Origin: a bacterium
Lineage (GTDB): Bacteria > Patescibacteriota > CPR2 > UBA1875 > JAJYID01
Direction: 5' to 3'
Assembly: GCA_021787535.1 (NCBI GenBank)
Contig: JAJYLR010000001.1
Span: 83,648-147,647, forward strand
Length of the DNA stretch: 64,000 nt
The notes under the pieces: model-generated
Databases searched by the model: none
What the model saw: only the letters and a program-made list of their open reading frames with translations
Told to the model about the DNA's origin: nothing
In this document: in pieces, positions 10,423-52,065 of the stretch
How the letters are laid out: each line of letters opens with the position of its first letter
Numbering within the stretch: the first letter of the stretch is position 1
Program-made: the position numbers and the translations under genes

Positions 10423-10544
10423 CTTTAAAACTCCAACCCTCCTTAATTTAAGGACAGCATAACAAATATGGGGCCAAACGGCAATTGTTTTTTGCTGTCA
10501 AAAATGGGTTTTTAGAGATATAATTGAAGGCGTGAGGAGGAAGA

Positions 10545-10772: not shown

Positions 10773-10853
10773 AGTAGCTTACAATCTATTATTCTTAATT
10801 GTAATTTTAAGCGTTCAGTAGTAAAATATTGAGTACTAAAAAGAGAGGAAGTT

Positions 10854-14289: not shown

Positions 14290-14717
14290 ATAAGCTAATC
14301 ATTTTTACAGACGGGGGGGCGAGGAACAATCCGGGGCCGGCGGGGATCGGGGTTGTTCTTTATGATGAAAACAAAAAGATACTGGAAACTTACAAAGAGT
14401 ACATCGGCGAGGCGACGAACAATCAGGCGGAATATCGGGCGCTTATTAAGGCGTTGGAATTAGCTCAAAAATATATAAATTCTGGACAAGGCCAGAATGA
14501 CCAGAAGGTTGCAATTGAATGTTTTTTGGACAGTGAACTTGTTGTTAAACAATTAAATAAAGAATACAAGGTCAAAGATCCGGCGATTAAGGAGCTTTAT
14601 AATCAGGTACTAGACCTCTCAATTTTTAAAAGTATTAGCTTCACTCATGTCAGGCGCGAACAGAACAAGCTGGCGGACAAGCTGGTCAATGAGGCGATAG
14701 ATGAAAAGCATCTATAA
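14286..14717 (+). CDS. rnhA: Ribonuclease HI
   Basis: IIFTDGGARNNPGPAGIGVV, TNNQAEYRALIKALE and a C-terminal HVRREQNKLADKL match RNase H type 1 catalytic residues. Confidence 0.8.
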   Translation: MNKLIIFTDGGARNNPGPAGIGVVLYDENKKILETYKEYIGEATNNQAEYRALIKALELAQKYINSGQGQNDQKVAIECFLDSELVVKQLNKEYKVKDPAIKELYNQVLDLSIFKSISFTHVRREQNKLADKLVNEAIDEKHL

Positions 14718-19297: not shown

Positions 19298-19427
19298 AAG
19301 TAACAAGTAACAAGAAACAATGACCAAACAAATTTCAAATTTCAAATTAGAAACAGGGAGAATATCTTTGTTATTTGTTGATTGTTATTTGTTTGTATCT
19401 TGCTATCTTGCGCCTTGTATCTTTGAG
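19298..19427. repeat. MITE-like ~130-bp imperfect palindromic element (copy 1) immediately upstream of pgk
   Basis: aagtaacaagtaacaagaaacaatgaccaaacaaatttcaaatttcaaatt ... gttatttgttgattgttatttgtttgtatcttgctatcttgcgccttgtatcttt. It is a paralog of 51931-52065 and shows internal inverted symmetry. Confidence 0.7.
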
Positions 19428-20614: not shown

Positions 20615-20656
20615 GTATAGAGTATGCAGTATTGGGTATTGGGGGTTGTCACACTC

Positions 20657-20703
20657 TATCATTCCGAGCGACTTCGCGGTAGCGACGAGCCGAGGAATCC
20701 CTT
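20657..20703. repeat. Palindromic element, type C (GTCATTCCGAGCG...CGAGGAATCCC), intergenic copy
   Basis: tcattccgagcgacttcgcggtagcgacgagccgaggaatccc. The same element occurs inverted at 37801-37848 and as variants inside uvrD and acs. Confidence 0.8.
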
Positions 20704-20735
20704 TTCAATAATGTAATTTAAAATATGATTTATAT

Positions 20736-20763
20736 AGATTCCCGCCTGCGCGGGAATGACAAA
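20736..20763. repeat. Palindromic element, type B (GATTCCCGCCTGCGCGGGAATGAC), intergenic copy
   Basis: Identical or near-identical copies at 38295-38320 (in ppsA) and 54436-54463 (in uvrD). Confidence 0.85.
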
Positions 20764-28861: not shown

Positions 28862-31800
28862 ATGTATAACCCAACCAAGTCAACCTTAATTAAAATCTTC
28901 TCTTTAATATCTATTTTAATTTTATGCGGTTTTTTGCTTGTTTACGAACTGACGATTCATGAAGTTAATCAGAAATACAAAAACCAGCAGTCTTCGCAGG
29001 GCAATATTTCGCTTTCAACTTCCGATCTCTCCAAAGATTACGTATCACTCAAGGGCTCAAATCCTCAGTCCGGCAATATCAACCTTGAGGGCAATATCTC
29101 AGGCAATGATGTCCAGGGGCAAACCATTACCTCAACCGTTCAGAATGGAACATCTCCGCTTAATGTCACTTCATCAACCTTAGTTAACAACCTTAATGCT
29201 GACATGGTGGACGGCAAGCACGCAGATGAATTAACCAAAACAACCGTAAACAATATTACAAACACTACAACAGGTGAATCTATCCAGCCGGGAACAACAG
29301 GCCAATACTACCGCGGCGATAAATCCTGGCAGACCTTAAATTCTTCTGCTGTCGGTCTTGGAAATGTCGAGAATACAGCTCTTTCGACATGGACGGGATC
29401 AAACCAAGTTGCCATTTTAGGAACCGTCACTTCCGGAACCTGGAACGCTGGTGCAATCAACGCGGCCGGTTCTATTACCGGTACAGCTCTCCAAGGCACG
29501 TCCTTAAATCTTGGTTCAGGCGCTATCACATCAGGCGCAATTAACGGCCAAACTATTTCTTCCAGCGCTAACTTTACAGGAACTATTACGGCTGGCGGTA
29601 CCATTAACGGAGCTACAATCTCCGGAGGCACACTTTCCGGCGGAAATGTCTCAGGCGGTACTGTCCAGGGTGGAACGCTTTCGTCAACGGCTGTCAACGG
29701 CGTAACTACGGCAAACATTCTAGTCAACACCGGCTCATATTCTGATCCTTCTTGGCTACAAGGTCTTGCCGGTTCAAAGATTACCGGAGATATTCAAGGA
29801 AATGCTAGCGGGTTAACGGGTTCACCTAATATCACGGTTGGTACGATCACTTCCGGCAACATCACATCATCGGGAACACTGGATATTACAGGAACAGGGG
29901 ATTCAACAGTTGGCGGTAATATTTCAGTGAACCCGGACTTTGGCTCTGAGCTAACGACAAATGGAAACTTTAACGGCAGTGCCAACAACTGGCTGGTTTC
30001 CTGCACCGATTATTCCAGCGGTTCCACTGCCTGTAATACGGCTGATACGCCAAACTCAGTTCCGGCATCCGGTTGGTCTTACGGCTCAAACAGTGTTTCT
30101 CATGCTTCTGGAACAAACAACACTGATGCCTTATATCAGGACATTTCAAATACGGCGGGAGAAACATACGGATCAAATATCATTACAGACAGCAACTTTT
30201 CTCTCAATCCTGCAACTAACGGATGGGATTGGATGGATGCCGGCTGGCATTGGGTAAACAACACCGCTATGACTAATGCCGGAGGAGCGTATTTCGGCGA
30301 TGATCTCGGAACAAGCCTTACAGCCGGACTGTACAAAGTTCAATTCTCAACATCGGGAATGCCTGCTGGCGGGCAACTAAAAGTTGCTTTATCCAGTGGA
30401 GGGATAAGTGAAGATGCAGCAGTCGTATCAGGTAACGGCCAACATACTTTCTATTTCACAGTCGGCACCACTCCTGAGACGGGTGGCTGGCCATATTATC
30501 TATATTTTGATTCGACATCGGTTGGCACCACCATTGATAACGTGTCGGCTCAACTGGTTACCGGCGCTCAGTTCGGAGAATCGCAAACTCAGTCATACAA
30601 AGTTAGTTTCGCTGTCTCGGGCATGACAGCCGGATCGCTCTCCGCCAATCTCGGTGGTGTCGGCGGGTCGCCCATTACGGCCAATGGGACCTATACCCAG
30701 TATTTAATTGGCAAGCCCAACGCTAACATCATTTCATTTGTTCCATCACATGATGCTGTCTTTACTCTTTCAAATATTTCCGTTACTCCGGTTCAGAACG
30801 GCACTATTACTGTTCAGGATATCATTACCAAAGGAGGGCCGAAAGTTGACGTCAGAGCTTATGGCGCAAAAGGAGACGGGAAGACCGACAATACGGCGGC
30901 CATCCAGGCGGCGGAAGACAGTCTCCCTGATCAGGGCGGCACTCTTTATTTCCCATCCGGAACATTTCTCGGCCACGTAACCCTAAAGTCAAATGTCCAT
31001 GTTGAAGGTGCCGGTATCAACGCAACCATACTGAAACTTCCGAACGGCGCAAATACGGATGTGATTGCCTCCAAAGATTTCGCCAGCTTGACCGGCAACA
31101 CAACCAACAGAGATGGTGTTAATAGAGTTACACTCGATGACATAACCATCGACGGAAATGCAGGAAACAATACCGCGGGTTACGGTGTCAGAAAATACGG
31201 AGGCCAATGGAATGTTCATGACGTTGTCATTAAAAACTGCGCTCAGGACGGAGTCTATTCTGAGTGGGGTAGCTATGGGGGCGCTCCTCTTGTGGCTGAT
31301 TCAATGGAAGATCATTGGACTAATATTATGCTTACTGTTAATTCCGGCAGCGGTATGACCTGGAACGGCCCTCATGATAGCGTGCTCGACAACTTTATTG
31401 TAAGTAGCAACAGTGGCAATGGGATCAATTTTGAGAATGCATCCGGGGGGGTTGCCAATGGTACCCAGCTGAAGAATTCCCACATTTGGGGCAATTCATC
31501 AACAGGTTATGGTTTGTGGATTAAAACGAGTATAAATCTTGACAATGATATTGTCGAAGGGGCAACCGGTACTGGCGGAATCGGCATTTATGTGGATTCC
31601 GGCGGAGCCATCTTGGCAAACGGCCTCCAAGTCTATGCTTGTGAAACAGGAGTTTACATAAGCGGAGTGTCGCCGGGCGGAAATAATGAGATTACAGGAA
31701 TTACTTTGTCTACTATTACTAAAGCTAATATTGTCATTTATAGCGCTTGGTCCGTCCGAATAACCGGTGCCACAATTTCGATCTCTTCGAATTCTTCAAG

Positions 31801-32731
31801 TGCAGTGGGTATTGATCTGCAAAGCGGAGGAAATGCCTATATAGATAATGCAGTGATCAGTTTAGGACAGAATTCGCATGGCATTAATGTTGGTAGCTCA
31901 GGGTCGGCGTTTACCGGCAGTATGATTTCTGCCAGGATTGTAGGATATACCGGAAGCAGCCCGACCGGAACCATGATCAATTGGGCTAATGCCGGAGATG
32001 CCAACAACAACTTAACAGCCACAGTTTCGACACATACGGGAGAAACCGCTCTTGCAGGCAGTCCCGCAGCAAGTAATGAAATTAATATTTTATCAACAGG
32101 GACTGGGACAAATGCGAATTACAAAAACTTCTCAAGCGCCAATAACGTTGGGGTTGGGGTAATTAATTCTCAAAACAAGCTTAGCGTTAATGCTCCTGTT
32201 ACGGCTGACACGCTGGCAACCACGATAATTACGCCAACTGTGGCTTCGAACAAAGGTTTAGTAGTGCAAGGTTATACTTCGCAAACTGCTGACTTGATCC
32301 AGGCGCAAAGTTCACTAGGAGCCGTGTTATTTAAGATTGACAACTCGGGTAACTTGGCGGCTAAAAGCGCAACCTTCACCGGCACATTGACTATGAACGG
32401 TCATATTATTACCGGAAACTCAATCGGTTCGACGACGATTGCCGCCGGAGCTAATGCAGGAACGGGAGCCACGGCAACAATCAGTGGAAACGACACTTCG
32501 GGGACTATCACAGTGACGACTGGAACCGGCCCGGCTGCGGGAACTTTGGCAACTATTACATTTGCCGGTACCTATGGCTCGGCACCAAGAGTGGTTTTGA
32601 CACCAACCGGCGCAAATGGCGCAACTCTGCAATATTATGTCGGATCCACAACCACAACATTTACCTTATCTAGCGGTACGGCACCGACGGCTTCAACCGC
32701 CTACACCTACAATTATCAGGTAATGCAGTAG
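28862..32731 (+). CDS. Giant surface protein paralog (1289 aa) with the same N-terminal anchor, a shared conserved ~300-aa N-domain, a pectate-lyase-type beta-helix and a shared C-terminal domain
   Basis: VRAYGAKGDGKTDNTAAIQAAEDSLPDQGGTLYFPSGTF. The N- and C-terminal regions align with the upstream gene. The genes are in tandem with a 77-bp spacer. Confidence 0.8.
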   Translation: MYNPTKSTLIKIFSLISILILCGFLLVYELTIHEVNQKYKNQQSSQGNISLSTSDLSKDYVSLKGSNPQSGNINLEGNISGNDVQGQTITSTVQNGTSPLNVTSSTLVNNLNADMVDGKHADELTKTTVNNITNTTTGESIQPGTTGQYYRGDKSWQTLNSSAVGLGNVENTALSTWTGSNQVAILGTVTSGTWNAGAINAAGSITGTALQGTSLNLGSGAITSGAINGQTISSSANFTGTITAGGTINGATISGGTLSGGNVSGGTVQGGTLSSTAVNGVTTANILVNTGSYSDPSWLQGLAGSKITGDIQGNASGLTGSPNITVGTITSGNITSSGTLDITGTGDSTVGGNISVNPDFGSELTTNGNFNGSANNWLVSCTDYSSGSTACNTADTPNSVPASGWSYGSNSVSHASGTNNTDALYQDISNTAGETYGSNIITDSNFSLNPATNGWDWMDAGWHWVNNTAMTNAGGAYFGDDLGTSLTAGLYKVQFSTSGMPAGGQLKVALSSGGISEDAAVVSGNGQHTFYFTVGTTPETGGWPYYLYFDSTSVGTTIDNVSAQLVTGAQFGESQTQSYKVSFAVSGMTAGSLSANLGGVGGSPITANGTYTQYLIGKPNANIISFVPSHDAVFTLSNISVTPVQNGTITVQDIITKGGPKVDVRAYGAKGDGKTDNTAAIQAAEDSLPDQGGTLYFPSGTFLGHVTLKSNVHVEGAGINATILKLPNGANTDVIASKDFASLTGNTTNRDGVNRVTLDDITIDGNAGNNTAGYGVRKYGGQWNVHDVVIKNCAQDGVYSEWGSYGGAPLVADSMEDHWTNIMLTVNSGSGMTWNGPHDSVLDNFIVSSNSGNGINFENASGGVANGTQLKNSHIWGNSSTGYGLWIKTSINLDNDIVEGATGTGGIGIYVDSGGAILANGLQVYACETGVYISGVSPGGNNEITGITLSTITKANIVIYSAWSVRITGATISISSNSSSAVGIDLQSGGNAYIDNAVISLGQNSHGINVGSSGSAFTGSMISARIVGYTGSSPTGTMINWANAGDANNNLTATVSTHTGETALAGSPAASNEINILSTGTGTNANYKNFSSANNVGVGVINSQNKLSVNAPVTADTLATTIITPTVASNKGLVVQGYTSQTADLIQAQSSLGAVLFKIDNSGNLAAKSATFTGTLTMNGHIITGNSIGSTTIAAGANAGTGATATISGNDTSGTITVTTGTGPAAGTLATITFAGTYGSAPRVVLTPTGANGATLQYYVGSTTTTFTLSSGTAPTASTAYTYNYQVMQ

Positions 32732-32732
32732 G

Positions 32733-32772
32733 CAAGCAACCGCTTGCTTGCTTTTACAAGGACAGTCCTTGT
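32733..32772 (+). terminator. Tandem hairpins after the giant gene: gcaagcaa-ccgc-ttgcttgc followed by TTTT, then the 17-nt perfect palindrome acaaggacagtccttgt
   Basis: Inverted repeats read directly from the sequence. The second palindrome is a member of a recurring gene-end palindrome family (also at 33875, 58092 and 61281). Confidence 0.55.
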
Positions 32773-32780: not shown

Positions 32781-32849
32781 TGTATAGATGCTTGAGTTTT
32801 TGTATAGATATTTGACATTTTGTATAGTTTTTGATAGTATATCTATACA
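32781..32849 (+). promoter_or_regulatory. Promoter (TTGACA-17-TAGTAT) carrying three direct TGTATAG(A) repeats and an inverted CTATACA. A candidate operator array for the downstream MerR-type regulator.
   Basis: tgtataga at 32781 and 32801, tgtatag at 32821 inside the spacer, ctataca at 32843. ttgaca at 32812-32817 and tagtat at 32835-32840. The ATG at 32852 implies a leaderless or very short leader. Confidence 0.5.
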
Positions 32850-32851
32850 AT

Positions 32852-33574
32852 ATGAAAAATAACAAAAAATTGATGCCGATCGGAGAAGCAGCTGATTTCC
32901 TGGAGGTATCGGTTATGACCCTCAGGCGTTGGGATGCTTCCGGAAAACTGCCGGCGCTCAAAAAGCCCAGCGGCCACCGATATTATGAACGCGAAGCGCT
33001 TGAGCGGTTTCGCGAGGATATTTTTGGCTTGGCGAGAACATGGGCGGGCAGCGAGACAGCCCCCGATATTCCAAAAGATTACTACTGTGAAACTCAGGAT
33101 CGCTTTCGCGCTCGGCTTGAACATATGGCAATACTTGCCAGCCAAAAATCCGGGGTATCCGAAGCCGTCCCGATTTTAACAGCTGTGGCGGGAGAAATCG
33201 GCAACAATTCCTTTGATCACAACTTGGGAAACTGGCCTGACGTTCCCGGCGTATTTTTTGTCTATGACACCAATAAGCGTATAATTGTGTTGGCGGATCG
33301 CGGAGTGGGCATTAAGGGAACACTGTCAAGGGTTCGTCCAAATTTAAAAGATGACATTGACGCTCTGACTGTCGCGATGACTGAGCGCATATCGGGGAGA
33401 TCGCCGGAACAAAGGGGAAACGGTTTAAAGTTTGTAGTGAGTGTTACAGCGGAAAATTTGATTAAGGTAACTTTACAATCAGGAATAGCAGTCGCCACTA
33501 TTGAAAGAGGCAAGGCGCACATCTCTCTGGCTGATCGCAATATTCGCGGAGTATTAACTAAGGTGGAGTATTAA
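32852..33574 (+). CDS. MerR-family HTH fused to a GHKL-type ATPase/serine-kinase-like domain (anti-sigma-factor-like). The ORF-track start at 32831 is a TTG; the ATG at 32852 is preferred.
   Basis: The HTH PIGEAADFLEVSVMTLRRWDASGKLPALKKPSGHRYY fits the MerR pattern. The N-box EIGNNSFDH, G1 DRGVGI and G2 GNGLKFV resemble SpoIIAB/RsbW-type GHKL motifs. Confidence 0.55.
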   Translation: MKNNKKLMPIGEAADFLEVSVMTLRRWDASGKLPALKKPSGHRYYEREALERFREDIFGLARTWAGSETAPDIPKDYYCETQDRFRARLEHMAILASQKSGVSEAVPILTAVAGEIGNNSFDHNLGNWPDVPGVFFVYDTNKRIIVLADRGVGIKGTLSRVRPNLKDDIDALTVAMTERISGRSPEQRGNGLKFVVSVTAENLIKVTLQSGIAVATIERGKAHISLADRNIRGVLTKVEY

Positions 33575-33576: not shown

Positions 33577-33840
33577 ATGAAAATTGAACTTAAAAAATTC
33601 GGATTGGTTTTGACCTCTAGGCCGGCAGGCAAGGAAGCATTTGCGGCCATCCGGCCAACTTTAGATCTTAACGCTGATAAGGTAGAAGTTGATTTTAGCG
33701 GAATAATCTCTCTGTCCCCATCATGGGCCGATGAGTTTTTTAAGGGTTTGGAAAGTTTGTATGGAGATCGTGTAATCTATCTTCCGAGTGATAATCCGTC
33801 CGTAAAGGCCACTCTCAAAATCCTTCAAGACGAAGAGTAA
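33577..33840 (+). CDS. STAS-domain protein (anti-sigma-factor-antagonist-like, DUF4325-like). Putative partner of the upstream GHKL protein.
   Basis: 87 aa. VEVDFSGIISLSPSWADEFF resembles the SpoIIAA-type STAS core. Its start is 3 nt after the upstream stop. Confidence 0.5.
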   Translation: MKIELKKFGLVLTSRPAGKEAFAAIRPTLDLNADKVEVDFSGIISLSPSWADEFFKGLESLYGDRVIYLPSDNPSVKATLKILQDEE

Positions 33841-33874: not shown

Positions 33875-33891
33875 ACAAGGACTGTCCTTGT
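33875..33891 (+). terminator. Gene-end palindrome acaaggactgtccttgt (family member, opposite central base)
   Basis: A perfect 17-nt palindrome 35 nt after the STAS stop. Confidence 0.45.
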
Positions 33892-33947: not shown

Positions 33948-34037
33948 CTTTCTTTGTCATCCCGAGTGGAGCGATAGCGTAATCAAGGGATCTTTTTCCG
34001 AGGATTAAGGGATTCCTCCGCTTTGGTCGGAATGACA
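33948..34037. repeat. Composite palindromic element (type C variants) in the intergenic DNA upstream of the phosphoribosyltransferase gene
   Basis: tttgtcatcccgagtggagcgatagcgtaatcaagggatc ... gggattcctccgctttggtcggaatgacag. Confidence 0.65.
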
Positions 34038-37678: not shown

Positions 37679-37800
37679 AGAAAAGAGTAAAATAAGAATG
37701 ACTAATTACCAATATCTAATAACCAATCAATTCTAAAATTTAAAAATTAATTAATTGAAAATTGACTGGAAATTGGGACTTGAAAATTAGAAATTAAGGT

Positions 37801-37848
37801 TAAGGGATTCCTCGGCTTGTCGCTACCGCGAAGTCGCTCGGAATGACA
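37801..37848. repeat. Palindromic element type C, inverted copy of 20657-20703, upstream of ppsA
   Basis: gggattcctcggcttgtcgctaccgcgaagtcgctcggaatgacaaa is the reverse complement of the 20.66-kb copy, with 1-2 differences. Confidence 0.8.
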
Positions 37849-37863: not shown

Positions 37864-40395
37864 ATGAGTAAGAATATACTTTGGTTTAAAGAAGTCGGGA
37901 AAGACGACGGAGCAAGGGTTGGCGGTAAGGGTGCAAATCTTGGTGAGATGTTTAGTGCCGGTCTCCCGGTGCCGAACGGTTTTATCGTCACGGCGCAGGC
38001 TTACTTTGATTTTCTGGATCATACCGGGCTCAAGGCAAAGATTGCAGAAGCGCTTGAAGGCTTAAATGTTGAGGATTCCAAGGATCTGCAAGCGAGAGCG
38101 GAAAAGGTGCAGAGTTTAATAAAGAAGGCTGATTTCCCCCAGGACTTAGCTAATGAAATTACCAAAAATTACCACAAGCTTTCTGAAGAAGGCCAAAAGG
38201 AAAAGGGAAGGAGCAAAAAAGAAGATTCCGGTCAAGCCGGAATGACGGAAGATTCCCCCAATACCCAATACCCAATACCCAATACAGATCGACTGGATTC
38301 CCGCCTGCGCGGGAATGACAAGGCGGGCGTATATGTGGCTGTTCGTTCGAGCGCGACGGCCGAGGATTTGGCTGATGCGTCATTTGCCGGCCAGCAGGCG
38401 ACATACCTGAACATTCTTGGCGATATTCCTGTTTTGCATGCGGTTTTAAAATGCTGGGCGTCGCTCTTTGAAGCCAGAGCTATTTATTATCGCGAAGACA
38501 AAGGGTTTGACCAGCTGGAAGTGGGTATTGCAGTGCCGGTGCAGAAAATGGTCAACTCCGAAAAAGCGGGAGTTATGTTTACCATTGATCCTACAAATAA
38601 CGACATGGAGCATATTTCCATCGAAGCGGCTTACGGGCTTGGCGAAGTGGTTGTTCTGGGCGCCGTTACCCCGGATCGTTATCTGATTGATAAAAAAACC
38701 AGGCAAGTGACCGACAAGGAAATTCACAAACAGACTTGGATGCTAACCCGCGAAGGCGGCAATGCCGATACGGATAACACGGAAGACATCTCAAAGAATG
38801 GCGTCCCCGTACCGGAGGATAAGCAAGGATTGCAAAAGCTGAGCGATGACGAAATCTCACAGCTTACCGATCTGGCTTTGAAAATTGAGAAGCATTACGG
38901 CAAACCGCAAGACACAGAGTGGGCGGTCGAGGGCGGAAAAGTTTACATGACCCAGTCGCGACCGATAACGACATTGCCAAGTAAAGATGATCAGGCAGGA
39001 ATGGATTCCGGACAAGCCGGAATGACAAATGAAGGGCAGGATATTTCCGAGGCCAAAGTGATATTAAAAGGTTCGGCGGCATCAGTCGGGATGGCCGGGG
39101 GACCGGTAAAGATCATTCATTCGCCGAGCGAGATAGACCAGATCTTGGACGGCGATGTTTTGGTCACAGAAATGACCACCCCGGATTTCGTGCCGGCTAT
39201 GAAGAGGGCTTCGGCTATCGTTACTGATGAAGGCGGACGGACCTGCCATGCGGCCATTGTTTCAAGAGAACTTGGTATTCCTTGCGTTGTCGGGACTGAG
39301 ACAGCTACAACTACGCTTAAGGATTACCCGAAAGTAACCGTCGATGGCAAAAGCGGCGCGGTTTATGAAGGTAAGGTTAAATCTCAATCGGATTCTGGAC
39401 AGGATTCTGGACAAGCCAGAATGACGAGCTCAGAGCCAGCGCCGATAACTGCCACGAAAATTTATGTCAACTTGGGAGAACCGGAACTGGCCGAGAAAGT
39501 AGCGGCTCGCGACGTCGATGGGGTGGGCTTGCTGCGCGCTGAGTTCATTATCATGGAGTCCATCGGCGAACATCCCAAGAAAATGATCAAGGAAGGGCGC
39601 CAAGAGGAATATATTACAAAACTAGCCGAAGGACTGGAAACATTTGCCCGGGCCTTTGATCCAAGACCTGTTGTTTATAGGGCTACTGATTTTAAGACTA
39701 ACGAATATCGAGGGCTAAAGGGCGGAGAAGAGTTCGAGCCCGAGGAAGACAATCCGATGATCGGCTATCGCGGCTGCTTCAGATACTTAAAAGATCCGGA
39801 AGAATTTTCATTGGAGCTTGAGGCGATTAAAAAAGTGCGCCAAAACCACAGAAATCTCCACCTGATGATTCCCTTTGTTCGCCGCACCGATGAGTTTCAA
39901 AAAGTTAAAGCAATGGTCGAAAAGAGTGGATTAAATAAAGAGAGCGACCCCGACTTTAAACTTTGGATTATGGTGGAGGTGCCATCGGCTGTTATCGAAA
40001 TAGAAAAGTTCTGCCAGATGGGCATCGACGGCGTGTCAATCGGCTCAAATGACCTGACCCAGCTGACTTTGGGATTAGATCGGGATTCAAATCTTGTGGC
40101 AGAGGAGTTTGATGAGCGAAACGATGCCGTCCAATGGATGATTAAAAGAACGGTGGAAACATGCAAAAAATACGGCGTTACTTGCTCGATCTGCGGCCAG
40201 GCGCCAAGCGTTTATCCCGAAGTAGCGCAGAAAATGGTGGAGTATGGCACCACATCCATTTCCGTAAACCCCGATATGATTGAGAGCACGCGCAAACTGG
40301 TGGCGCAGGTTGAAGAGAAGATTTTGATGAATGAAATGAGCGCAGTTCAGGCGAAATTGTCTGAATTGGAACAAAAGATAGAGACAAATGAGTAA
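37864..40395 (+). CDS. ppsA: Phosphoenolpyruvate synthase (pyruvate, water dikinase)
   Basis: N-terminal ATP-grasp VGGKGANLGEM, phosphohistidine domain GGRTCHAAIVSRELGIPCVVG, and a C-terminal PEP-utilising domain SICGQAPSVYPE...SVNPD. A ggaggg RBS is present. It contains three in-frame repeat-element insertions. Confidence 0.85.
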   Translation: MSKNILWFKEVGKDDGARVGGKGANLGEMFSAGLPVPNGFIVTAQAYFDFLDHTGLKAKIAEALEGLNVEDSKDLQARAEKVQSLIKKADFPQDLANEITKNYHKLSEEGQKEKGRSKKEDSGQAGMTEDSPNTQYPIPNTDRLDSRLRGNDKAGVYVAVRSSATAEDLADASFAGQQATYLNILGDIPVLHAVLKCWASLFEARAIYYREDKGFDQLEVGIAVPVQKMVNSEKAGVMFTIDPTNNDMEHISIEAAYGLGEVVVLGAVTPDRYLIDKKTRQVTDKEIHKQTWMLTREGGNADTDNTEDISKNGVPVPEDKQGLQKLSDDEISQLTDLALKIEKHYGKPQDTEWAVEGGKVYMTQSRPITTLPSKDDQAGMDSGQAGMTNEGQDISEAKVILKGSAASVGMAGGPVKIIHSPSEIDQILDGDVLVTEMTTPDFVPAMKRASAIVTDEGGRTCHAAIVSRELGIPCVVGTETATTTLKDYPKVTVDGKSGAVYEGKVKSQSDSGQDSGQARMTSSEPAPITATKIYVNLGEPELAEKVAARDVDGVGLLRAEFIIMESIGEHPKKMIKEGRQEEYITKLAEGLETFARAFDPRPVVYRATDFKTNEYRGLKGGEEFEPEEDNPMIGYRGCFRYLKDPEEFSLELEAIKKVRQNHRNLHLMIPFVRRTDEFQKVKAMVEKSGLNKESDPDFKLWIMVEVPSAVIEIEKFCQMGIDGVSIGSNDLTQLTLGLDRDSNLVAEEFDERNDAVQWMIKRTVETCKKYGVTCSICGQAPSVYPEVAQKMVEYGTTSISVNPDMIESTRKLVAQVEEKILMNEMSAVQAKLSELEQKIETNE
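38221..38325. repeat. Composite in-frame insertion in ppsA: type A half-element (gattccggtcaagccggaatgac), (CCCAATA)x4 heptamer, and type B element (ggattcccgcctgcgcgggaatgac)
   Basis: Read directly from the sequence. It is translated as EDSGQAGMTEDSPNTQYPIPNTDRLDSRLRGNDKAG. Confidence 0.85.
39003..39028. repeat. Type A half-element (ggattccggacaagccggaatgacaa) in frame in ppsA
   Basis: Translated as DSGQAGMT. Confidence 0.8.
39391..39425. repeat. Type A half-element with a 12-bp internal duplication (gattctggacag-gattctggacaagccagaatgac) in frame in ppsA
   Basis: Translated as SDSGQDSGQARMT. Confidence 0.8.
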
Positions 40396-41246: not shown

Positions 41247-42547
41247 AGATAAAAAATATAAAAGCAAATGAAATACTGGATTCACGGGGCAATCCCACCG
41301 TTTCTACCGAGATAGAGTTGGAAAACGGCATAATTTCTCATGCATCGGTTCCCAGCGGGGCGTCGACCGGTATTCATGAGGCGCATGAGCTGCGTGACGG
41401 CGACATGAAACGTTTTGACGGCAAAGGAGTCTTAAAGGCCTGTCAAAACATTGAGCAGATTATACAGCCGGAAATTAAAAAAATTGACATTGAAAATCAG
41501 GCGGAAATCGATAGTAAAATGTGCGAGCTGGACGGCACAAAAAACAAGGAAAAACTCGGAGCAAATGCTATTTTAGCGGTTTCGATCGCGGCTCTTAGGG
41601 CTCATGCCGCACATAACGGTAAAGAGCTGTATGAGATTATCGGCGAGCTTTACGGATTTCATGATTTTCGCCTTCCCAAGCCCTTGTCGGTTATTCTAGA
41701 AGGCGGCAAACATTCGGATTCTAATTGTGAAATCCAAGAATTCATGATTCAAATCGAGGAAGAGAAAATCGAGGAAAATTTACGGAAGATTGAACTTGTT
41801 TACCATTCGCTTGAGCAGGTGCTTGAAAGCCAGGGTAAAAATACCAACATTGGTTATGAAGGAGCATTTGGTCCGAATTTAACCTCGAACCGGGAGGGGC
41901 TTGATCTGATTATGCAGGCGATTGAAATGTCCGGATTAAAGCCCCGATATGATGTGCGTATTGCCCTCGATATTGCTGCCAGTGAATTTTACGATACTGA
42001 GAGCAGCCAATACCTTCTAAAAAGTGAGAACATTGCTCTGCGCGGGAGCCAGATGGTGGCTTACAATGAAGAGTTAGCGAGGGATTATCCTATCCTTTCT
42101 ATCGAAGACGGCATGTACGAGGATGACTGGGAAGGATGGCAAGCGCTCTATGAGCGTCTGGGCGATAAAATCATGCTGGTTGGCGACGATCTGTTTGTGA
42201 CCAACACCGAGCGCATTAGAAATGGCATTGATCGCCATGCTGCTAACGCAGTTTTGATTAAGCCGAATCAGATTGGTACAGTGACAGAAACCATCGAAGC
42301 TGTCAAAATGACCAAATTTGCCAGTTGGGAACCGATTGTTTCGCACAGGAGCGGAGAGACGAACGATAGTTTTATCGCCGATCTGGCCGTGGCGATCAGC
42401 GCCAAGTATATTAAAGCCGGCGCGCCGGCCAGAGGCGAGAGAGTAGCGAAATATAATCGGCTGATGGAAATTTCCTCTGTCATTCCCGCCCCCGATCGGG
42501 TCGAGGGTAAAGCTTCGGCGGGAATCCAGGAAGATAATTCAAAATGA
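41243..42547 (+). CDS. eno: Enolase
   Basis: ILDSRGNPTV N-terminus, the SHRSGETND signature and IKPNQIGT. Confidence 0.95.
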   Translation: MKIKNIKANEILDSRGNPTVSTEIELENGIISHASVPSGASTGIHEAHELRDGDMKRFDGKGVLKACQNIEQIIQPEIKKIDIENQAEIDSKMCELDGTKNKEKLGANAILAVSIAALRAHAAHNGKELYEIIGELYGFHDFRLPKPLSVILEGGKHSDSNCEIQEFMIQIEEEKIEENLRKIELVYHSLEQVLESQGKNTNIGYEGAFGPNLTSNREGLDLIMQAIEMSGLKPRYDVRIALDIAASEFYDTESSQYLLKSENIALRGSQMVAYNEELARDYPILSIEDGMYEDDWEGWQALYERLGDKIMLVGDDLFVTNTERIRNGIDRHAANAVLIKPNQIGTVTETIEAVKMTKFASWEPIVSHRSGETNDSFIADLAVAISAKYIKAGAPARGERVAKYNRLMEISSVIPAPDRVEGKASAGIQEDNSK

Positions 42548-44004: not shown

Positions 44005-45276
44005 ATGCAGAAGATTCTTTTTATCATATTTGACGGGCTTGGCGATAGGCCTATCAAAAAATTTGGCGGGCTGACTCCGCTTGAAGCGGCGCATACCCCT
44101 AATATGGATCAATGGGTACACAAGGGCATTTGCGGAACGATGAATGCCATGCCAACCAATTTATATCCGACAAGCGAAGAAGCGCACCTGGCCATTTTCG
44201 GCTATGATTTTGTGAGAGATTATCCCGGACGGGGAGTTTTGGAAGCGCTTGGCATTGGCATTAAATTAAAACCGGATGAGATGGCATTTCGCATAGATTT
44301 CGGGACGGTGGATCAAAGTTTAAAGCTGATTGATCCGAGAGCGGGAGTGATTGAGTCGACTGAGAAGCTGTGCAAGGCGGTCGACGGAGTTGAGGTGGAC
44401 GGGGTAACTTTCAAGATTTATCCTTCGCTTCTATATCGGGGTGTTTTGGTTCTTTCGGGCCAGCCGGTTAAAAATTATCTGAAAAAAGTCAAGCATGCTG
44501 CAATTTCTGATACTGATCCTCACAAAAGCGGGCCTCACAAACTGGATGTTAGAGTGCTTCATCCCCAGTCATTTGGCGAGTGCCGCGAGGGTAAAACGGT
44601 GGCTAGAGCACTGGAGCGGTACCAGTATTTGACGCATGAGATTCTAGAAGAGTATAAGGTTAACAAAAAAAGAGTTAAGCAAGGCCTGCCGCCGGCAAAC
44701 TTTATCCTGGCGCGCGGTGAAGGCAGACTTAAGCCCGTCCAAAGCTTCAAAGATAGATACGGCTTGAAAGCCGCTTGCGTTGCCGGTGCCCCGCTCTACA
44801 AAGGCATTGCTTCATATTTAGGCATGGATGTCCTGCATGTTCGGGGAGCGACCGGAACGCTAGATACAAATGCCGATGCAAAAGTGAAAGCTTCTATAAA
44901 AGCGCTCAAAAAGAATGATTTTGTATTCTTGCATTTCAAAGGAACGGATATGGCAGCCGAAGAACTAGGTAGTCCAGAGCTCAAAAAGAAATTCATCGAG
45001 AAAGTTGACAAATCGTTTTCAAGACTTTCCGGGCTCAAAAATGTTATGATAGTAGTGACCGGTGATCACTCGACACCCTGTGAACTGCACGACCATTCGA
45101 CAGATCCAGTACCGCTGTTAATTAACAGCCAATTTCCAATACCTAATGCCCGATTAAATTCCCAAGGCAAAAGGTCAAATGCCAAGTTTGGAGAGAGCGA
45201 GTGCAAAGATGGCAATTTGGGACATATTTATGGGAAAGACATGATGAAAAAATTATTGGAAATGAGGGCAATGTAG
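44005..45276 (+). CDS. apgM: 2,3-bisphosphoglycerate-independent phosphoglycerate mutase, archaeal type
   Basis: The N-terminal ILFIIFDGLGDRP metal-binding motif characteristic of ApgM. The size is 423 aa. Confidence 0.8.
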   Translation: MQKILFIIFDGLGDRPIKKFGGLTPLEAAHTPNMDQWVHKGICGTMNAMPTNLYPTSEEAHLAIFGYDFVRDYPGRGVLEALGIGIKLKPDEMAFRIDFGTVDQSLKLIDPRAGVIESTEKLCKAVDGVEVDGVTFKIYPSLLYRGVLVLSGQPVKNYLKKVKHAAISDTDPHKSGPHKLDVRVLHPQSFGECREGKTVARALERYQYLTHEILEEYKVNKKRVKQGLPPANFILARGEGRLKPVQSFKDRYGLKAACVAGAPLYKGIASYLGMDVLHVRGATGTLDTNADAKVKASIKALKKNDFVFLHFKGTDMAAEELGSPELKKKFIEKVDKSFSRLSGLKNVMIVVTGDHSTPCELHDHSTDPVPLLINSQFPIPNARLNSQGKRSNAKFGESECKDGNLGHIYGKDMMKKLLEMRAM

Positions 45277-47166: not shown

Positions 47167-47231
47167 GATAAAAAACCAATGACCTATACCCAATAACTAA
47201 TCAAATCCTAATTTAAAAATTTTAAAATTCA

Positions 47232-49571
47232 TTGATTGAAAATTCAAAAATCGGAGGGGCTTTGCTAGATCGTTTCTTCAATCCAAAGAGTGTAGCTGTT
47301 ATCGGGGCTTCTCATCATAAAGAGAAGCTTGGGTTTTTGGTTTATGACAATATCAGAAAATACGGTTATAAAGGAAAACTTTATGGAGTGAATATCAAGG
47401 GCGGTTCCGCACATATTTCGCGTAAAAAATCAGGAGCGCAAAATATGTGCGGAATTCCACTCTACAAAACTGTAGGCGATATCCCTGGGCCGATAGATTT
47501 AGCTGTTGTGGTGATACCTGCGAAAGCTGTACCTCAAATAGTTAAAGATTGCGGTAAAAAAGGAATAACTTCTGTCATTATTATCTCGGCCGGGTTTTCT
47601 GAAACTGGAGCAGAAGGCAAAAAGTTAGAGGAAAAAATTGCCGATTTGTCACATAAATACGGTATCAGAATCTTGGGGCCGAACTGTCTCGGCATCATCG
47701 ACTCTTGGAGCAAAATGAACGCCTCTTTTGCCGAAAGTATGCCGGACAAGATGAAGATTTCTCTTCTTTCCCAGTCAGGAGCCATCTGCACGGCTATTTT
47801 AGACTGGGCCAATAGCGAAGAAATCGGTTTCTCCAGATTTATTTCTTTGGGCAATAAGCTTGATATCGATGAAAATGATGTCTTGGCTTATCTAGCCCGT
47901 GACACAAAAACCAAAGTTGTCCTGGCATATCTCGAAAGCATTGCCGATGGCCAGAAATTTATGGATAATGCTAGAAATCTTGCCTTGAAAAAGCCATTTA
48001 TCATGGTGAAGTCAGGCCGAACCAGCGAAGGCGCCAAAAGCATCTCTTCTCATACGGGCAGTATTGCCGGGTCGGATATTGTTATCGATACCGCTCTTCG
48101 CCAGAGCGGAGTGATACGGGCTGAGAGCTTAGAGGACCTCTTTGATCTGGCAAAAATATTTGCCTTTTCACCGGAAATGAAAGGCAAGAACGTTGCTGTT
48201 ATTTCAAATGCCGGCGGTCCGGCAGTTATGCTTGCCGATACGATTGGTCAAAGCCGCTTAAAGCTGGCTAAGTTTGAGCCAAAAACCCGTAAAATTCTAG
48301 AAGAGACATTGCCTCCTGAAGCTGCGACTCATAATCCTGTAGACGTCATCGGTGATGCCAGAGCCGATCGTTATGAAACTGCTACTTGCGAGGTTTTAAA
48401 AGATGAAAATGTTGATGCGGCCATAGTTGTTTTAACACCCCAAGTTATGACAGAGATTGAAGCGACAGCTAAAGTCATTAACAAGGCAAAAAAGTACGGA
48501 AAACCTTTGGCGGTATCTTTTATTGGCGGAGAAAAAGTCGGAGATGGCAGGAAAATTCTCGAAGACTTTGAAATACCTTCATATGAGTTTCCGGAGAGAG
48601 CGATCAAAGCGCTAGAAGCACTATTTGAGTACTATGAATTTAAGAGACACTATGGTCTTTGTCATTCCGACTGCCACCACGTGAGTTGCAAGCGGAGGAA
48701 TCCCTTAAAGAATAGCCAATTTCCAATAACCAATGACCAATCAAGCTCTAATAATCAGATGTCAAACAAAGGTGGTCATTCTGGGGACGGCAGGACCCCG
48801 GAATCTAATACAGATAAGGATTCTGGACAGGTCAGAATGACGAACAACAGGCAAAAGGTATCTGAAATTATCGGACCGGTATTTAACCGGCGCCAAAAGC
48901 TTATCACAGACGGAAGTTCGAGCGCTTTTGATGTTTTTGACGCCTATGGTATCAGCACTATCAAAAGAGCATATGGTCTGGGACTAAAGGATTTGAAAAA
49001 GAAATCGGAAGAACTGGGGTTTCCGCTTGTTGCGAAGACTTGCGCCGAAGGCGTTTTGCACAAAACGGATATTGGCGGAGTCAAGTTGGGTATGAGAGAT
49101 GAAAGCGAACTGCAAAAAGCGTATTTTTCAATTTGTAATAAAGTGCGAAAAGCTGGTTTCGAGGAGGGTTCGGATCGGGTTGACATTTATAAACAAGAAG
49201 AGGACGGCGTCCAAATATTTCTGGGCGCAAAAAAGGATTCCAGTTTTGGACCGCTCATAATTTTTGGTTTAGGCGGAATATTCGTCGAGGCGCTTAAAGA
49301 TTTTTCATATAGAATCGCGCCGGTTACGCATACCGAGGCCAAGAGAATGATCGGCGAAATAAGATCGCAGAAAGTTCTAAACGGTTTTCGGGGCATGCCG
49401 GAAGTTGATCGGGACAAAGTGGCAGATGCAATCGTTGGTTTGTCCCAGCTTATGCTCGACTTCCCGGAAATCAAAGAAGTAGATATTAATCCCTTAATGG
49501 CAACGGATAAAAAATGCGTTGCCATAGACGGAAAAATAATTTTGGACTTAGAAGTAGACCATGGTTTCTAA
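47232..49571 (+). CDS. Acetyl-CoA synthetase (ADP-forming), fused alpha/beta type. The real start is probably the TTG at 47265, which has a GGAGG RBS.
   Basis: The CoA-binding N-terminus FFNPKSVAVIGAS, succinyl-CoA-synthetase-like flavodoxin domains and a C-terminal ATP-grasp. A ~60-aa repeat-element insertion sits in the inter-domain linker. Confidence 0.85.
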   Translation: MIENSKIGGALLDRFFNPKSVAVIGASHHKEKLGFLVYDNIRKYGYKGKLYGVNIKGGSAHISRKKSGAQNMCGIPLYKTVGDIPGPIDLAVVVIPAKAVPQIVKDCGKKGITSVIIISAGFSETGAEGKKLEEKIADLSHKYGIRILGPNCLGIIDSWSKMNASFAESMPDKMKISLLSQSGAICTAILDWANSEEIGFSRFISLGNKLDIDENDVLAYLARDTKTKVVLAYLESIADGQKFMDNARNLALKKPFIMVKSGRTSEGAKSISSHTGSIAGSDIVIDTALRQSGVIRAESLEDLFDLAKIFAFSPEMKGKNVAVISNAGGPAVMLADTIGQSRLKLAKFEPKTRKILEETLPPEAATHNPVDVIGDARADRYETATCEVLKDENVDAAIVVLTPQVMTEIEATAKVINKAKKYGKPLAVSFIGGEKVGDGRKILEDFEIPSYEFPERAIKALEALFEYYEFKRHYGLCHSDCHHVSCKRRNPLKNSQFPITNDQSSSNNQMSNKGGHSGDGRTPESNTDKDSGQVRMTNNRQKVSEIIGPVFNRRQKLITDGSSSAFDVFDAYGISTIKRAYGLGLKDLKKKSEELGFPLVAKTCAEGVLHKTDIGGVKLGMRDESELQKAYFSICNKVRKAGFEEGSDRVDIYKQEEDGVQIFLGAKKDSSFGPLIIFGLGGIFVEALKDFSYRIAPVTHTEAKRMIGEIRSQKVLNGFRGMPEVDRDKVADAIVGLSQLMLDFPEIKEVDINPLMATDKKCVAIDGKIILDLEVDHGF
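48661..48842. repeat. Composite in-frame insertion in the acs linker: type C variant, a CCAAT-type heptamer stretch, and a full type A element (gtcattctggggacggcaggaccccggaatc-N13-gattctggacaggtcagaatgac)
   Basis: Read directly. It is translated as CHSDCHHVSCKRRNPLKNSQFPITNDQSSSNNQMSNKGGHSGDGRTPESNTDKDSGQVRMT. Confidence 0.85.
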
Positions 49572-50037: not shown

Positions 50038-51141
50038 GTGGCAACTCAAACTAAAACTAAAACGGTTTTAATGACCGGGAATCAAGCGGTGGTGAAAGCG
50101 GCTTTGGCTGTCGGTGCTGAGATGTTCAGCGGTTATCCGATAACGCCGACTACTGAAATTCTGACCGAATGGTCAAAAGCGGCCGAAAATAATAAAGATC
50201 TCATATTTTTGCAGACCGAGGATGAGCCGGCGGCCGGCTTTGTGATGATTGGCGGAGTTTCCATGGGCAAAAAGGCTTGGACGGCGACAGCCGGCGTCGG
50301 GCACGTTCTGATGCAGGATCCGCTCTCTATGGCAGAAGCTATGAGAATCCCGACGGTGACTTATATCGGCCAGCGCGGCGGTCCCTCAACCGGCACAGTG
50401 ATCTATTCCCAGCAAGAGCTGAATCTGGCTCGGATGGGCGGAAACGGCGAAGGCCTTCGCATCGTCTTTGCGCCTTCGAACCTGCAAGAACTCTACGATC
50501 TGACCATTAAGGCATTTAATGTAGCTTGGAAATACCGGTTTCCGACATTTATTCTATCCGACGGATATCTTGCCAAAACATATGGAGAAATTGAGCTTTG
50601 GCAGCCAAACAAATCGGAAATCGTGCCGACCGAAAGTTTCTTTTTGAATCCCAAAACAAGTCCGAACAATATCAGAAACTGCTACTCTATGGAGGTTGAG
50701 CTTTATGACCAACTGCTCAAAGACTTTGCCGATTATGCCAAAATGTCAGAGAAAGTTGAAGAAAGCGAGCTACTTGGCGACAAGAAGACAAATCTTTTAG
50801 TTTGCGCCTGGGGTGCGGTAGGAAACTCGGCTAAAACAGCGCTTAAGGCACTGGAAAAACAAAACATTTATTTTAAACTTTTCCGTCCGATTACTCTTAG
50901 GCCGTTTCCGGCAAAAGATCTGCAAAAAGCGGCGGAAGGAGTGACGGATATCCTCATTTTAGAGTCAGCAAACGGGCAGTTTGGCCGCATTGTGCGAGAA
51001 TCTTTGTATGGCACGACCGAAGCCGAAGTGCATCGCCTGTACAAACCGGCTATGGGCATCATGCCGGAAGAAATTCAAGCCAAAGTTAAGGAAGTATTTA
51101 AATTGGAGGATTCTGGACAAGCCAGAATGACGCAATCATGA
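50038..51141 (+). CDS. 2-oxoacid:ferredoxin oxidoreductase alpha subunit (pyruvate/2-ketoisovalerate type)
   Basis: LMTGNQAVVKAALAVGAEMFSGYPITPTTEI matches the PorA/KorA N-terminus. The C-terminal tail EDSGQARMTQS is encoded by a type A half-element. Confidence 0.85.
   Translation: MATQTKTKTVLMTGNQAVVKAALAVGAEMFSGYPITPTTEILTEWSKAAENNKDLIFLQTEDEPAAGFVMIGGVSMGKKAWTATAGVGHVLMQDPLSMAEAMRIPTVTYIGQRGGPSTGTVIYSQQELNLARMGGNGEGLRIVFAPSNLQELYDLTIKAFNVAWKYRFPTFILSDGYLAKTYGEIELWQPNKSEIVPTESFFLNPKTSPNNIRNCYSMEVELYDQLLKDFADYAKMSEKVEESELLGDKKTNLLVCAWGAVGNSAKTALKALEKQNIYFKLFRPITLRPFPAKDLQKAAEGVTDILILESANGQFGRIVRESLYGTTEAEVHRLYKPAMGIMPEEIQAKVKEVFKLEDSGQARMTQS
51108..51131. repeat. Type A half-element (ggattctggacaagccagaatgac) forming the 3' end of the OFOR alpha gene
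   Basis: Identical to the copy at 39403-39425. Confidence 0.85.
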
Positions 51142-51930: not shown

Positions 51931-52065
51931 AAGAAGTAACAAGATACAAGAGACAATGACCAAACAATACTCAAAATTCAATTTTCAAGAAGCAAACGAC
52001 GTCGGTTTGTTATTTGGTTATTGTTCCTTGTTTGTACCTTGCTTTCTTGCATCTTGTATCTTTAA
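51931..52065. repeat. MITE-like ~135-bp element (copy 2) immediately upstream of the OFOR gamma gene. Paralog of 19298-19427.
   Basis: aagaagtaacaagatacaagagacaatgaccaaacaatactcaaaattcaattttcaag ... gtttgttatttggttattgttccttgtttgtaccttgctttcttgcatcttgtatcttt. Confidence 0.7.

Follow-up and report, generated by a model that had tools for sequence, protein, structure and literature searches.

Short hairpin repeats of several described kinds bear on the elements analyzed here, which lie within ppsA, the phosphoenolpyruvate (PEP) synthase gene of a very small, WS5-like Patescibacteria genome, in a stretch of 64,000 nucleotides (64 kb; contig JAJYLR010000001.1; hereafter the window). Repetitive extragenic palindromes (REPs) of the GTAG type are short tagged hairpins, and the RAYT gene, encoding a Y1 HUH enzyme, is bracketed by inverted hairpins in units named REPtrons. 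Among the Rickettsia palindromic elements (RPEs), RPE-1 was reportedly found by Ogata et al. in 2000 to be inserted in frame in conserved functional proteins, at fold-compatible sites, giving lineage-specific peptides. The elements of ppsA belong, as judged from their sequence, to the family of CGTC-tagged REPs, dRS3, the Neisseria transformation sequence (NTS) and Ssn-related motifs (SRMs). CGTC-tagged REPs have a stem of 8–9 bp whose first pairs are A-T and T-A, a loop of 4–5 nt and a CCA tail; CGTC-1 comprises Neisseria dRS3 and R. conorii RPE-6, CGTC-4 comprises RPE-4, and intragenic copies occur in UvrD-type helicases, tRNA synthetases and other genes (Di Nocera et al. 2013, PMC3733652). 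The NTS has the consensus CGTCATTCCCGCGMAVGCGGGAATCYRG, and dRS3 reads ATTCCC-N8-GGGAAT. The 94-aa single-domain GIY-YIG protein SsnA binds the NTS and cuts one of its strands as single-stranded DNA (ssDNA), the key nucleotides being GTC before the stem and C after it, and ssn genes are typically flanked by hairpins (PMC11893778).

An initial annotation of this DNA had described ppsA as a continuous open reading frame (ORF) carrying three palindromic elements. The gene is indeed one intact ORF of 843 aa, and three repeat-derived segments are present; these contain four perfect hairpins, not three, together with two half copies. The hairpins have the form G-ATTC...GAAT-GAC (GATTC-stem-loop-stem-GAATGAC). 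The features of the gene are as follows.

37806–37848, + strand: 41-nt-class family member, 15 nt 5′ of the ppsA start codon (40/41 identical to 20659–20699 on the − strand).
37864–40395, + strand: ppsA, PEP synthase (pyruvate, water dikinase), intact host gene (ORF, Pfam, PDB match and orthologue alignment).
38191–38328, + strand: segment 1, composite, aa 110–155 (46 aa) (orthologue alignment, pLDDT and alignment with 9dae).
38224–38246, + strand: 22-nt-class hairpin GATTCCGGTCAAGCCGGAATGAC, stem 7, loop 5, peptide DSGQAGMT (hairpin scan and folding).
38257–38284, + strand: (CCCAATA)x4 heptamer array, peptide PNTQYPIPN (repeat scan).
38296–38319, + strand: 23-nt-class hairpin GATTCCCGCCTGCGCGGGAATGAC, stem 8, loop 4, peptide DSRLRGND (hairpin scan).
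38992–39026, + strand: segment 2, half copy CAGGCAGGAATG (38992–39003) followed by a 22-nt-class hairpin (39004–39026), peptide QAGM-DSGQAGMT (indel relative to L001).
39391–39425, + strand: segment 3, 12-nt left-arm duplicate (39391–39402) followed by a 22-nt-class hairpin (39403–39425), peptide DSGQ-DSGQARMT (alignment).

Segment 1 is built of a purine-rich run, the 22-nt hairpin, the (CCCAATA)x4 array and the 23-nt hairpin, and is translated as GQKEKGRSKKE-DSGQAGMT-EDSPNTQYPIPNT-DRL-DSRLRGND-KAG. The peptides encoded by the repeats, namely DSGQAGMT, DSRLRGND, QAGM-DSGQAGMT and DSGQ-DSGQARMT, contain no stop codon, in agreement with the expectation of stop-free insertions, although the spans of 26 and 35 nt originally quoted for two of them are not multiples of three; likewise, the peptide pattern D-S-G-Q-A-G/R-M-T applies to three hairpins, whereas the fourth reads DSRLRGND. 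The number of hairpin matches expected by chance in dinucleotide-preserving shuffles was 0.00–0.03, versus 3–6 observed, and the folding energy of the hairpins as ssDNA ranged from −5.5 to −8.7 kcal/mol (z of about −3.5 to −4). Hairpins of ppsA recur exactly elsewhere in the window: that at 39403–39425 is identical to a copy at 51109–51131, and that at 38296–38319 to an intergenic 24-mer at 20737–20760. The latter lies near the 41-nt relative at 20659–20699, so that the occurrence of the same palindromes in intergenic DNA, also proposed initially, was borne out. The (CCCAATA) motif is likewise found beside an intergenic hairpin, at 20629–20642 (−).

PpsA was aligned with 34 orthologues from WS5 and other Patescibacteria, showing 67–89% identity to the window protein. 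Its Pfam domains are PPDK_N, PEP-utilizers and PEP-utilizers_C, and among solved structures its best matches are 9dae and 8a8e, both multimeric PEP synthases (E=1e-210). All invariant columns of the alignment are retained in the window protein and therefore ppsA looks functional; judging from its sequence, the enzyme would stay active despite the segments. Segment 1 is missing in 31/34 orthologues and represents a net gain of 39 codons with respect to P0003. In P0002 the first hairpin and the heptamers are present and the DSRLRGND hairpin is missing, P0004 has a partial, decaying version of the segment, and at this ppsA site the DSRLRGND hairpin was found in the window genome only. Compared with the closest relative, L001 (80.6% nucleotide identity), segment 2 is a clean 18-nt indel; its linker also holds elements in P0003, P0016-18, P0092 and P0107, and one of the 23-nt type in P0004. 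Thus, in the sequence comparison, segments 1 and 2 are lineage-specific, as had been predicted for all three. The prediction does not extend to segment 3, which shows no net length change with respect to L001 and L003; the linker having the same length there, the element replaced linker sequence and added none. The site of segment 3 is shared with L004, whose copy carries a 33-nt insertion nested in the loop. This insert, CCCTCCTCCGTTGAAAACTGCGGAACGGGCAGG (L004 11069–11123, in the segment-3 hairpin loop of P0004), is in frame and itself partly palindromic. Copies have decayed in relatives, with mismatches in stem or tag in L003 and L004 and loss of segment 2 in L001, and in a neighbour-joining tree of PpsA every site requires more than one gain or loss.

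The location of the segments in the fold was assessed with an AlphaFold2 model made from the 34-sequence alignment (mean pLDDT 73.7). The model falls below a pLDDT of 50 in nine stretches, of which the three longest, 116–153, 368–390 and 508–524, are the three segments, and these also have the lowest 10-residue block means (26–34). Segment 1 lies between helix 93–120 and strand 158–161 of the model. Segment 2 links the nucleotide-binding domain to the phospho-histidine domain, and segment 3 links the latter (PEP-utilizers, 429–498) to the PEP-binding domain; in the PPDK/PEP synthase family these two linkers are the flexible tethers of the swivelling domain. Against 9dae, query residues 110–154 are unaligned, with about 45 query residues opposite about 6, and against 8a8e segment 2 is aligned to gaps. 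The surface-loop or linker siting anticipated for the elements thus agrees with both the model and the solved structures.

The window was scanned for the GATTC...GAATGA pattern and for perfect ATTC/GAAT hairpins. About 20 family members were found in the 64 kb: 12 are short (22–24 nt), and the others share their ends but measure 30–47 nt. Eleven of these short copies lie inside genes: four in ppsA, two in UvrD/PcrA, and one each in the genes for RNase H, ADP-forming acetyl-CoA synthetase (ACS), PorA, RsmI and methionyl-tRNA synthetase (MetRS). All 11 lie on the coding strand in phase 0, read from the G of GATTC, with peptides of the type D-S-G-Q-A-G/R-M-T or D-S-R-L-R-G-N-D. The element is open in four of the six frames, and the use of a single one therefore represents a strong bias. 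Across Patescibacteria, window included, 16/17 intragenic short copies are in phase 0; by contrast, at loci outside this group, the candidate phyla radiation (CPR), the frames of long ORFs overlapping short-class copies are scattered. Long-class copies in the opposite orientation yield VIPA...AGIQ or HSGDGRTPES peptides. Every short copy (12/12) is on the + strand, which is the G-rich and coding strand from about 10.8 kb onward. Since copies are also found in RNase H, enolase, ACS, PorA, UvrD/PcrA, RsmI and MetRS, the phenomenon is not special to ppsA: the hits in this gene, emphasized initially, are real, but that emphasis understated the case, since the majority of the family members in the window lie within genes.

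The architecture of these repeats is close to that of the CGTC/NTS group. In 12/12 short copies GAC and then a purine follow on the + strand, equivalent to YGTC on the other strand, and the long-class copies share GTCATTC. Stems start with AT and comprise 8 bp in the 23- and 24-nt classes and only 7 bp in the 22-nt class; the loop has 4 nt in the 23-nt class and 5 nt in the 22- and 24-nt classes, apart from one copy with 6 nt. The stem is followed by C in 11/12 short copies, the exception being that at 14479, and by CC(A/T) in about half. In three cases, in ACS, UvrD and RsmI, a 30-nt (−) and then a 22-nt (+) copy form a head-to-head dimer (48776–48841, 55749–55815 and 59435–59488). On the opposite strand the 23-nt class has the sequence TGTCATTCCCGCGCAGGCGGGAATCCAG, and the three window copies of this class match the NTS consensus at 27/28, 26/28 and 27/28 positions; the reverse complement of 38293–38320, with 27/28, also fits the published SRM pattern, for which the window holds 3 matches versus 0.18 expected. 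A search of the window against Rfam gave no family match.

The 23-nt class thus resembles NTS, dRS3 and SRM in having GTC before and C after the stem, in forming a hairpin present in many copies and in fitting ATTCCC-N8-GGGAAT. The repeats of the window differ in their host, since Patescibacteria are absent from the main text of PMC11893778, in the 7-bp stem and 5-nt loop of the class that is most frequent here, and in that copies are mostly intragenic and translated within an ORF, in a window without an ssn gene. With CGTC REPs the repeats share the [C/T]GTC tag, a stem starting from AT, a loop of 4–5 nt and head-to-head dimers, as well as some intragenic, C-terminal or stop-supplying copies, UvrD-type helicase and tRNA synthetase hosts, and clusters encoding tens of residues. 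However, copies of the CGTC families lie for the most part between genes, R. conorii included, whereas here 11/12 short copies are intragenic in one frame; moreover, the stem of the 22-nt class is shorter than in all four described CGTC families, and the CCA tail is retained only in part. Kinship with Rickettsia RPE-4 and RPE-6 follows, by description, from their assignment to CGTC-4 and CGTC-1 (PMC3733652). The likeness to RPE-1, also by description, lies in the in-frame insertion into intact conserved proteins at fold-compatible sites; RPE-1 units, though, measure about 100–150 bp, versus 22–47 nt here, where only composites reach about 140 nt. GTAG REPs and RAYTs are similar in that short tagged hairpins are dispersed and a hairpin-bracketed enzyme gene is the likely repeat source, and different in that the tag here is YGTC and the enzyme GIY-YIG rather than Y1 HUH. 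Miniature inverted-repeat transposable elements were considered and set aside, no duplication being seen at ppsA segment 2 and the porA/porB junction.

The elements are therefore no new kind: the family has been described, and Rickettsia is among the bacteria in which in-frame copies of it are known. The literature searched yielded no report of such elements in Patescibacteria/CPR, in line with the initial impression that they were undescribed for CPR-like genomes. What looks new is the Patescibacteria host and the near-total move of the short class into coding sequence with one frame, and also the 22-nt subclass and its pairing with GIY-YIG cassettes in CPR genomes.

A link between hairpins and small nucleases emerged from a scan for the 23-mer GATTCYGGNCAAGCCRGAATGAC with one genome per species, which retrieved at least 119 loci. 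Among the matches listed, the majority are from Nitrospirota, and at least 8 classes of Patescibacteria, Gemmatimonadota, Bacteroidota, Gammaproteobacteria and others are represented. Loci of Nitrospirota/Thermodesulfovibrionia often have several GATTCYGGNCAAGCCRGAATGAC copies per 8 kb, with inverted pairs 40–50 nt apart. In L109, the sole such locus among the at least 119 listed, a 96-aa GIY-YIG ORF has an inverted 22-nt hairpin directly on each side, and a protein search found homologues of this nuclease to be common in Patescibacteria among the matches listed. GIY-YIG genes of 87–102 aa are hairpin-flanked in L109, L125/126, L127-130 and L131; such single-domain genes of about 90–100 aa, flanked on both sides in four Patescibacteria loci, reproduce the NTS-ssnA-NTS layout. 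In the three further cases (3/3), from Levybacteria, Woykebacteria and Blackburnbacteria, an element of 30–41 nt, GTCATTCTGG...CCAGAATC, stands 5′ of the GIY-YIG gene, which in Levybacteria and Woykebacteria ends in, or precedes, GATTCTGGACAAGCCAGAATGA, the same sequence as the window copies at 39403 and 51109, and in Blackburnbacteria is followed by a longer family member with the same ends. The dimers of the window have the same left and right ends as these cassettes, separated by 1–13 nt, and on this sequence evidence look like cassettes minus the gene. A search of the CPR nucleases against NCBIfam assigned no family. A Patescibacteria-type GIY-YIG protein, P0156 (contig JAJYQQ010000063.1, partly L025), ends ...IIDSGQARMTNRLEID; therefore this nuclease gene reads through the downstream 22-nt hairpin in the same frame as that used in host genes.

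In 139 copies from many genomes, a variable stem position was C-G in 95, T-A in 37 and mismatched in 7, that is, Watson-Crick paired in 132/139, which indicates that the hairpin is maintained. In this broad sample 128/139 copies lie outside long ORFs, so that the high in-gene fraction is a feature of the window lineage and not of the element family. In the same sample, hairpin strand was weakly associated with the main coding strand (50 vs 30, p=0.03). A general replication-linked orientation was unsupported, because hairpin strand does not follow GC skew (59 vs 49, p=0.39). Horizontal spread, or a protein partner in common, is suggested by the occurrence of an identical 23-mer in different phyla. 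Viral contigs gave 13 stretches with the 23-mer and no recognizable cassette, and a phage vector is therefore not indicated.

The family members in the remainder of the window are the following.

14479–14501, + strand: short-class hairpin in RNase H, same frame, peptide NSGQGQND (family scan).
20659–20760, both strands: pair in the intergenic DNA separating pgk from the next gene, a 41-nt-class copy (−, 20659–20699) and a 23-nt-class copy (+, 20737–20760) (family scan).
34011–34036, + strand: imperfect 25-nt family member 5′ of a phosphoribosyltransferase gene (family scan).
42480–42526, − strand: 47-nt-class element that encodes the C-terminal tail of enolase (VIPAPDRVEGKASAGIQ) (comparison with relatives).
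48662–48841, both strands: cluster in the interdomain linker of ADP-forming ACS, with a 41-nt copy (−), CCAATNN heptamers, a 30-nt copy (−, 48776–48805) and a 22-nt copy (+, 48819–48841) (comparison with L003).
51109–51131, + strand: 22-nt-class hairpin of PorA, within a 36-nt insertion (comparison with L003).
54374–54535, + strand: UvrD/PcrA cluster, with heptamers, a 23-nt-class hairpin (54437–54460) and a degenerate long-class copy (54482–54535) (comparison with PcrA).
55749–55815, both strands: UvrD/PcrA head-to-head dimer, degenerate 30-nt copy (−, 55749–55779) and 22-nt copy (+, 55793–55815) (comparison with PcrA).
59435–59488, both strands: RsmI head-to-head dimer, 30-nt (−) and 22-nt (+) (comparison with E. 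coli RsmI).
62755–62778, + strand: 24-nt hairpin at the end of MetRS, whose TGA is the stop codon (family scan).

As in PpsA, these copies occupy loops, linkers or termini, such as the C-termini of enolase, PorA and MetRS and the linker of ACS. The enolase tail differs in L001, L003 and L004. The ACS cluster is missing in the L003 orthologue, compared with which the window enzyme has about 40 extra linker residues. Relative to PcrA, the UvrD protein has a first insertion of 94 aa (aa 100–193) and a second of about 42 aa net (aa 537–590), and RsmI has a 22-aa insertion relative to the E. coli protein. PorA has 12 extra C-terminal residues with respect to L003, and the ATGA overlap of porA and porB is retained. 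At this junction (window 51095–51141, L003 21713–21830) the two genomes carry independent insertions, that of L003 being a dimer of about 100 nt in the other arrangement, with a 22-nt hairpin (−) and a 23-nt hairpin (+), placed after porB codon 3 and bringing a new AGGAGG ribosome-binding site and start codon; these independent events constitute the clearest sign of repeated, separate insertion.

AT-rich CCAATNN arrays with a 7-nt period accompany the hairpins, both 5′ of genes (19298–19348, 37697–37747, 47171–47221 and 51934–51984) and inside them (38257–38284, 45118–45157, 48711–48761, 54374–54424 and 55685–55735). A 136-nt composite of heptamers, 30-nt hairpin and 22-nt hairpin is shared by ACS (48707–48842) and UvrD (55681–55816) with 77% identity; the inserted unit may therefore exceed the hairpin, and it resembles intergenic DNA.

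The explanation that we consider best, and quite probable, is that dispersed short hairpin repeats, originating from an Ssn-like cassette and filtered by selection, have settled in frame at tolerant sites of ppsA. Each copy would consist of a GTC tag, a stem starting with ATTC and a C after the stem; the apparently complete Patescibacteria element would be a small GIY-YIG (Ssn-like) nuclease gene between two inverted hairpins, and singletons and head-to-head dimers would be its gene-less derivatives, moved presumably by the nuclease or another host function. The window is about 85% coding, and in such a genome most new copies would therefore land in genes. Surviving copies would be those that keep the frame, avoid the TGA-containing frames and add a small hydrophilic peptide at residue-tolerant sites, which in PpsA would be one loop on the surface of the nucleotide-binding domain and both tethers of the phospho-histidine domain. 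The elements would simply be translated, and the repeat-derived peptides are probably made. The presence of 16/17 copies in one of four open frames fits purifying selection on the encoded peptide. The core of the original proposal, RPE-like mobile palindromes inserted in frame and filtered by selection, is thereby supported.

Several observations weigh against this explanation. ppsA segment 2 and the porA/porB junction, which give the cleanest comparisons of filled with empty sites, show no target-site duplication; the length of the insert is not fixed (18 nt, 36 nt, about 100 nt or zero net), and neither segment 3 nor the RNase H copy lengthens its host gene. The 22-nt class, owing to its 7-bp stem, fails the strict published SRM pattern. 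Two motif scans in six frames found no GIY-YIG ORF in the window, nor was one present in the WS5 relatives' loci examined. Di Nocera et al. did not find a transposase dedicated to CGTC REPs (PMC3733652), and the activity demonstrated for Ssn is cleavage of single-stranded DNA rather than transposition (PMC11893778). Finally, peptide-level selection alone may be insufficient to account for a frame bias of 16:1 and a strand bias of 12:0.

In an alternative, the hairpins are kept in genes for a function, either as sites for Ssn-type nucleases that limit or steer recombination or as ribosome-pausing hairpins in mRNA at domain boundaries, and would be selected features instead of parasites that are tolerated; a role of the NTS in limiting or steering recombination of incoming DNA has been proposed for Neisseria. 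We regard this alternative as unlikely. It would account for the perfect palindromes and intact tags of window copies amid unalignable linker, for the retention of the GTC and C relevant to SsnA in 11/12 short copies (that at 14479 lacks the C), and for the placement of the GTCATTC strand on the template strand in 12/12. Furthermore, the best-conserved 21-codon stretch of ppsA relative to L001 is that of the first hairpin and heptamers (100% versus a median of 82.5%), the hairpin at 38224–38246 being identical in L001 within 63 nt of complete identity. This stretch could reflect nucleotide-level constraint, and equally well recent recombination or re-insertion. Decay of copies in L003 and L004, loss of segment 2 in L001, the unrelated nature of insertion sites and host proteins, and the intergenic position of 128/139 copies in other phyla all argue against retention for function. 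Mobilization as classical REPs by a RAYT of the IS200/IS605 Y1 family is far less likely still. REPs are likewise short hairpins with an unpaired tag and L004 has a Y1_Tnp gene at 4820–5443, but the tag here is [C/T]GTC, not GTAG, and none of the 29 window proteins scanned against Pfam, a scan that was not exhaustive, contained Y1_Tnp. The RAYT link was rejected because the L004 gene is flanked by another palindrome, ACAAGGACWGTCCTTGT.

Two further readings would deny that the ppsA segments are insertions of repeats, and both are highly improbable. Were they native low-complexity linker with a coincidental or convergent resemblance to the palindromes, the equal length of segment 3 and the L001/L003 linker, and the variation of linker length and sequence in all orthologues, would be expected. 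This is contradicted by identities at the DNA level, namely 23–24 nt shared with copies in unrelated genes and intergenic DNA, with 0 expected, and also by the lack of the segments in most orthologues and the presence of the 23-mer in at least 119 loci of other genomes. The other reading, assembly artefacts generated by chimeric joins at short repeats, finds some basis in the ENA metagenome contig ERZ27233565 k141_813560 (133,868 bp), which departs from the window at 37819, inside the palindrome 5′ of ppsA, so that at least one discrepancy between assemblies or strains falls at a repeat of this family. Upstream of that point (L145, 1–455) it has a reversed asparaginase gene in place of ClpB, the breakpoint being inside the 41-nt long-class hairpin; as the ClpB-ppsA order of the window is common to L001, L003 and L004, the ENA contig has either been mis-joined or comes from a strain rearranged at the repeat. 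From 37819 through 40895, however, contig and window agree at every one of 3077 nt (100% identity), a stretch that includes the whole of ppsA and every element. Moreover, P0002 occurs with its insertion in two NCBI assemblies and P0004 in one NCBI and one ENA assembly, and the frame is preserved everywhere.

Some other features of the window were recorded. The palindrome ACAAGGACWGTCCTTGT is found at 32758–32770 and 33877–33889, as well as at 58092 and 58114, and in L004 (4756–4785 and 5446–5475), L003 (4748–4775) and L001 (174). A two-gene cassette (MerR-type HTH, 32831–33574; DUF4325/STAS-like, 33577–33840) stands between its copies in the window and L001. The equivalent chromosomal position in L004 holds an IS200-like Y1 transposase, likewise bracketed by this palindrome, and L003 has a single ACAAGGACWGTCCTTGT with no cargo; the site looks like an insertion site with swappable cargo. 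At about 8000–10850 the sign of the GC skew is reversed and the genes turn from − to + orientation, and a replication origin may lie near 10.4–10.85 kb; the last minus-strand gene (7585–10422) encodes a VirD4/TraG-like coupling ATPase. A module of about 130 nt, whose halves resemble an imperfect long inverted repeat, occurs with 84–86% identity at 19298–19424, 5′ of pgk (19445), and at 51934–52063, 5′ of a POR gamma-type gene (52081), and may be a common regulatory leader. Two adjacent large ORFs, 23163–28784 (1873 aa) and 28862–32731 (1289 aa), have blocks of 139–300 nt in common with 73–80% identity, which points to tandem paralogues; the 1289-aa ORF is syntenic with beta-helix/pectate-lyase-like genes in L003 and L004.

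The means by which CGTC, NTS and Ssn-related hairpins spread is an open question in the field, and in the 2025 Ssn paper NTS-ssnA-NTS was only proposed to resemble an insertion sequence (PMC11893778). These Patescibacteria genomes offer exceptionally clean material in this respect, with filled and empty sites in close relatives, the two independent porA/porB insertions among them, cassettes and gene-less dimers with the same ends, and a record of frame and strand. A bolder proposal, to which we assign a low probability, is that Ssn-type hairpins are currently mobile in this lineage of small genomes, regularly supply linker, loop and C-terminal peptides to core enzymes, and are in addition retained through an Ssn-like nuclease. 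If this were true, reading of intragenic hairpins by the nuclease would, for example, limit the replacement of core genes by incoming DNA, the uniform orientation would ensure that the cleavable strand is not the exposed non-template and lagging-template one, and the identical 23-mer in Nitrospirota, many Patescibacteria classes, Gemmatimonadota and other groups would represent horizontal spread of nuclease-hairpin pairs. For annotation, the peptides DSGQA(G/R)MT, DSR(L/F)RGND and HSGDGRTPES can serve to flag repeat-derived segments of CPR proteins. More generally, in a genome with near-zero intergenic space, a selfish or semi-domesticated repeat can steadily add residues to central metabolic and DNA-repair enzymes.

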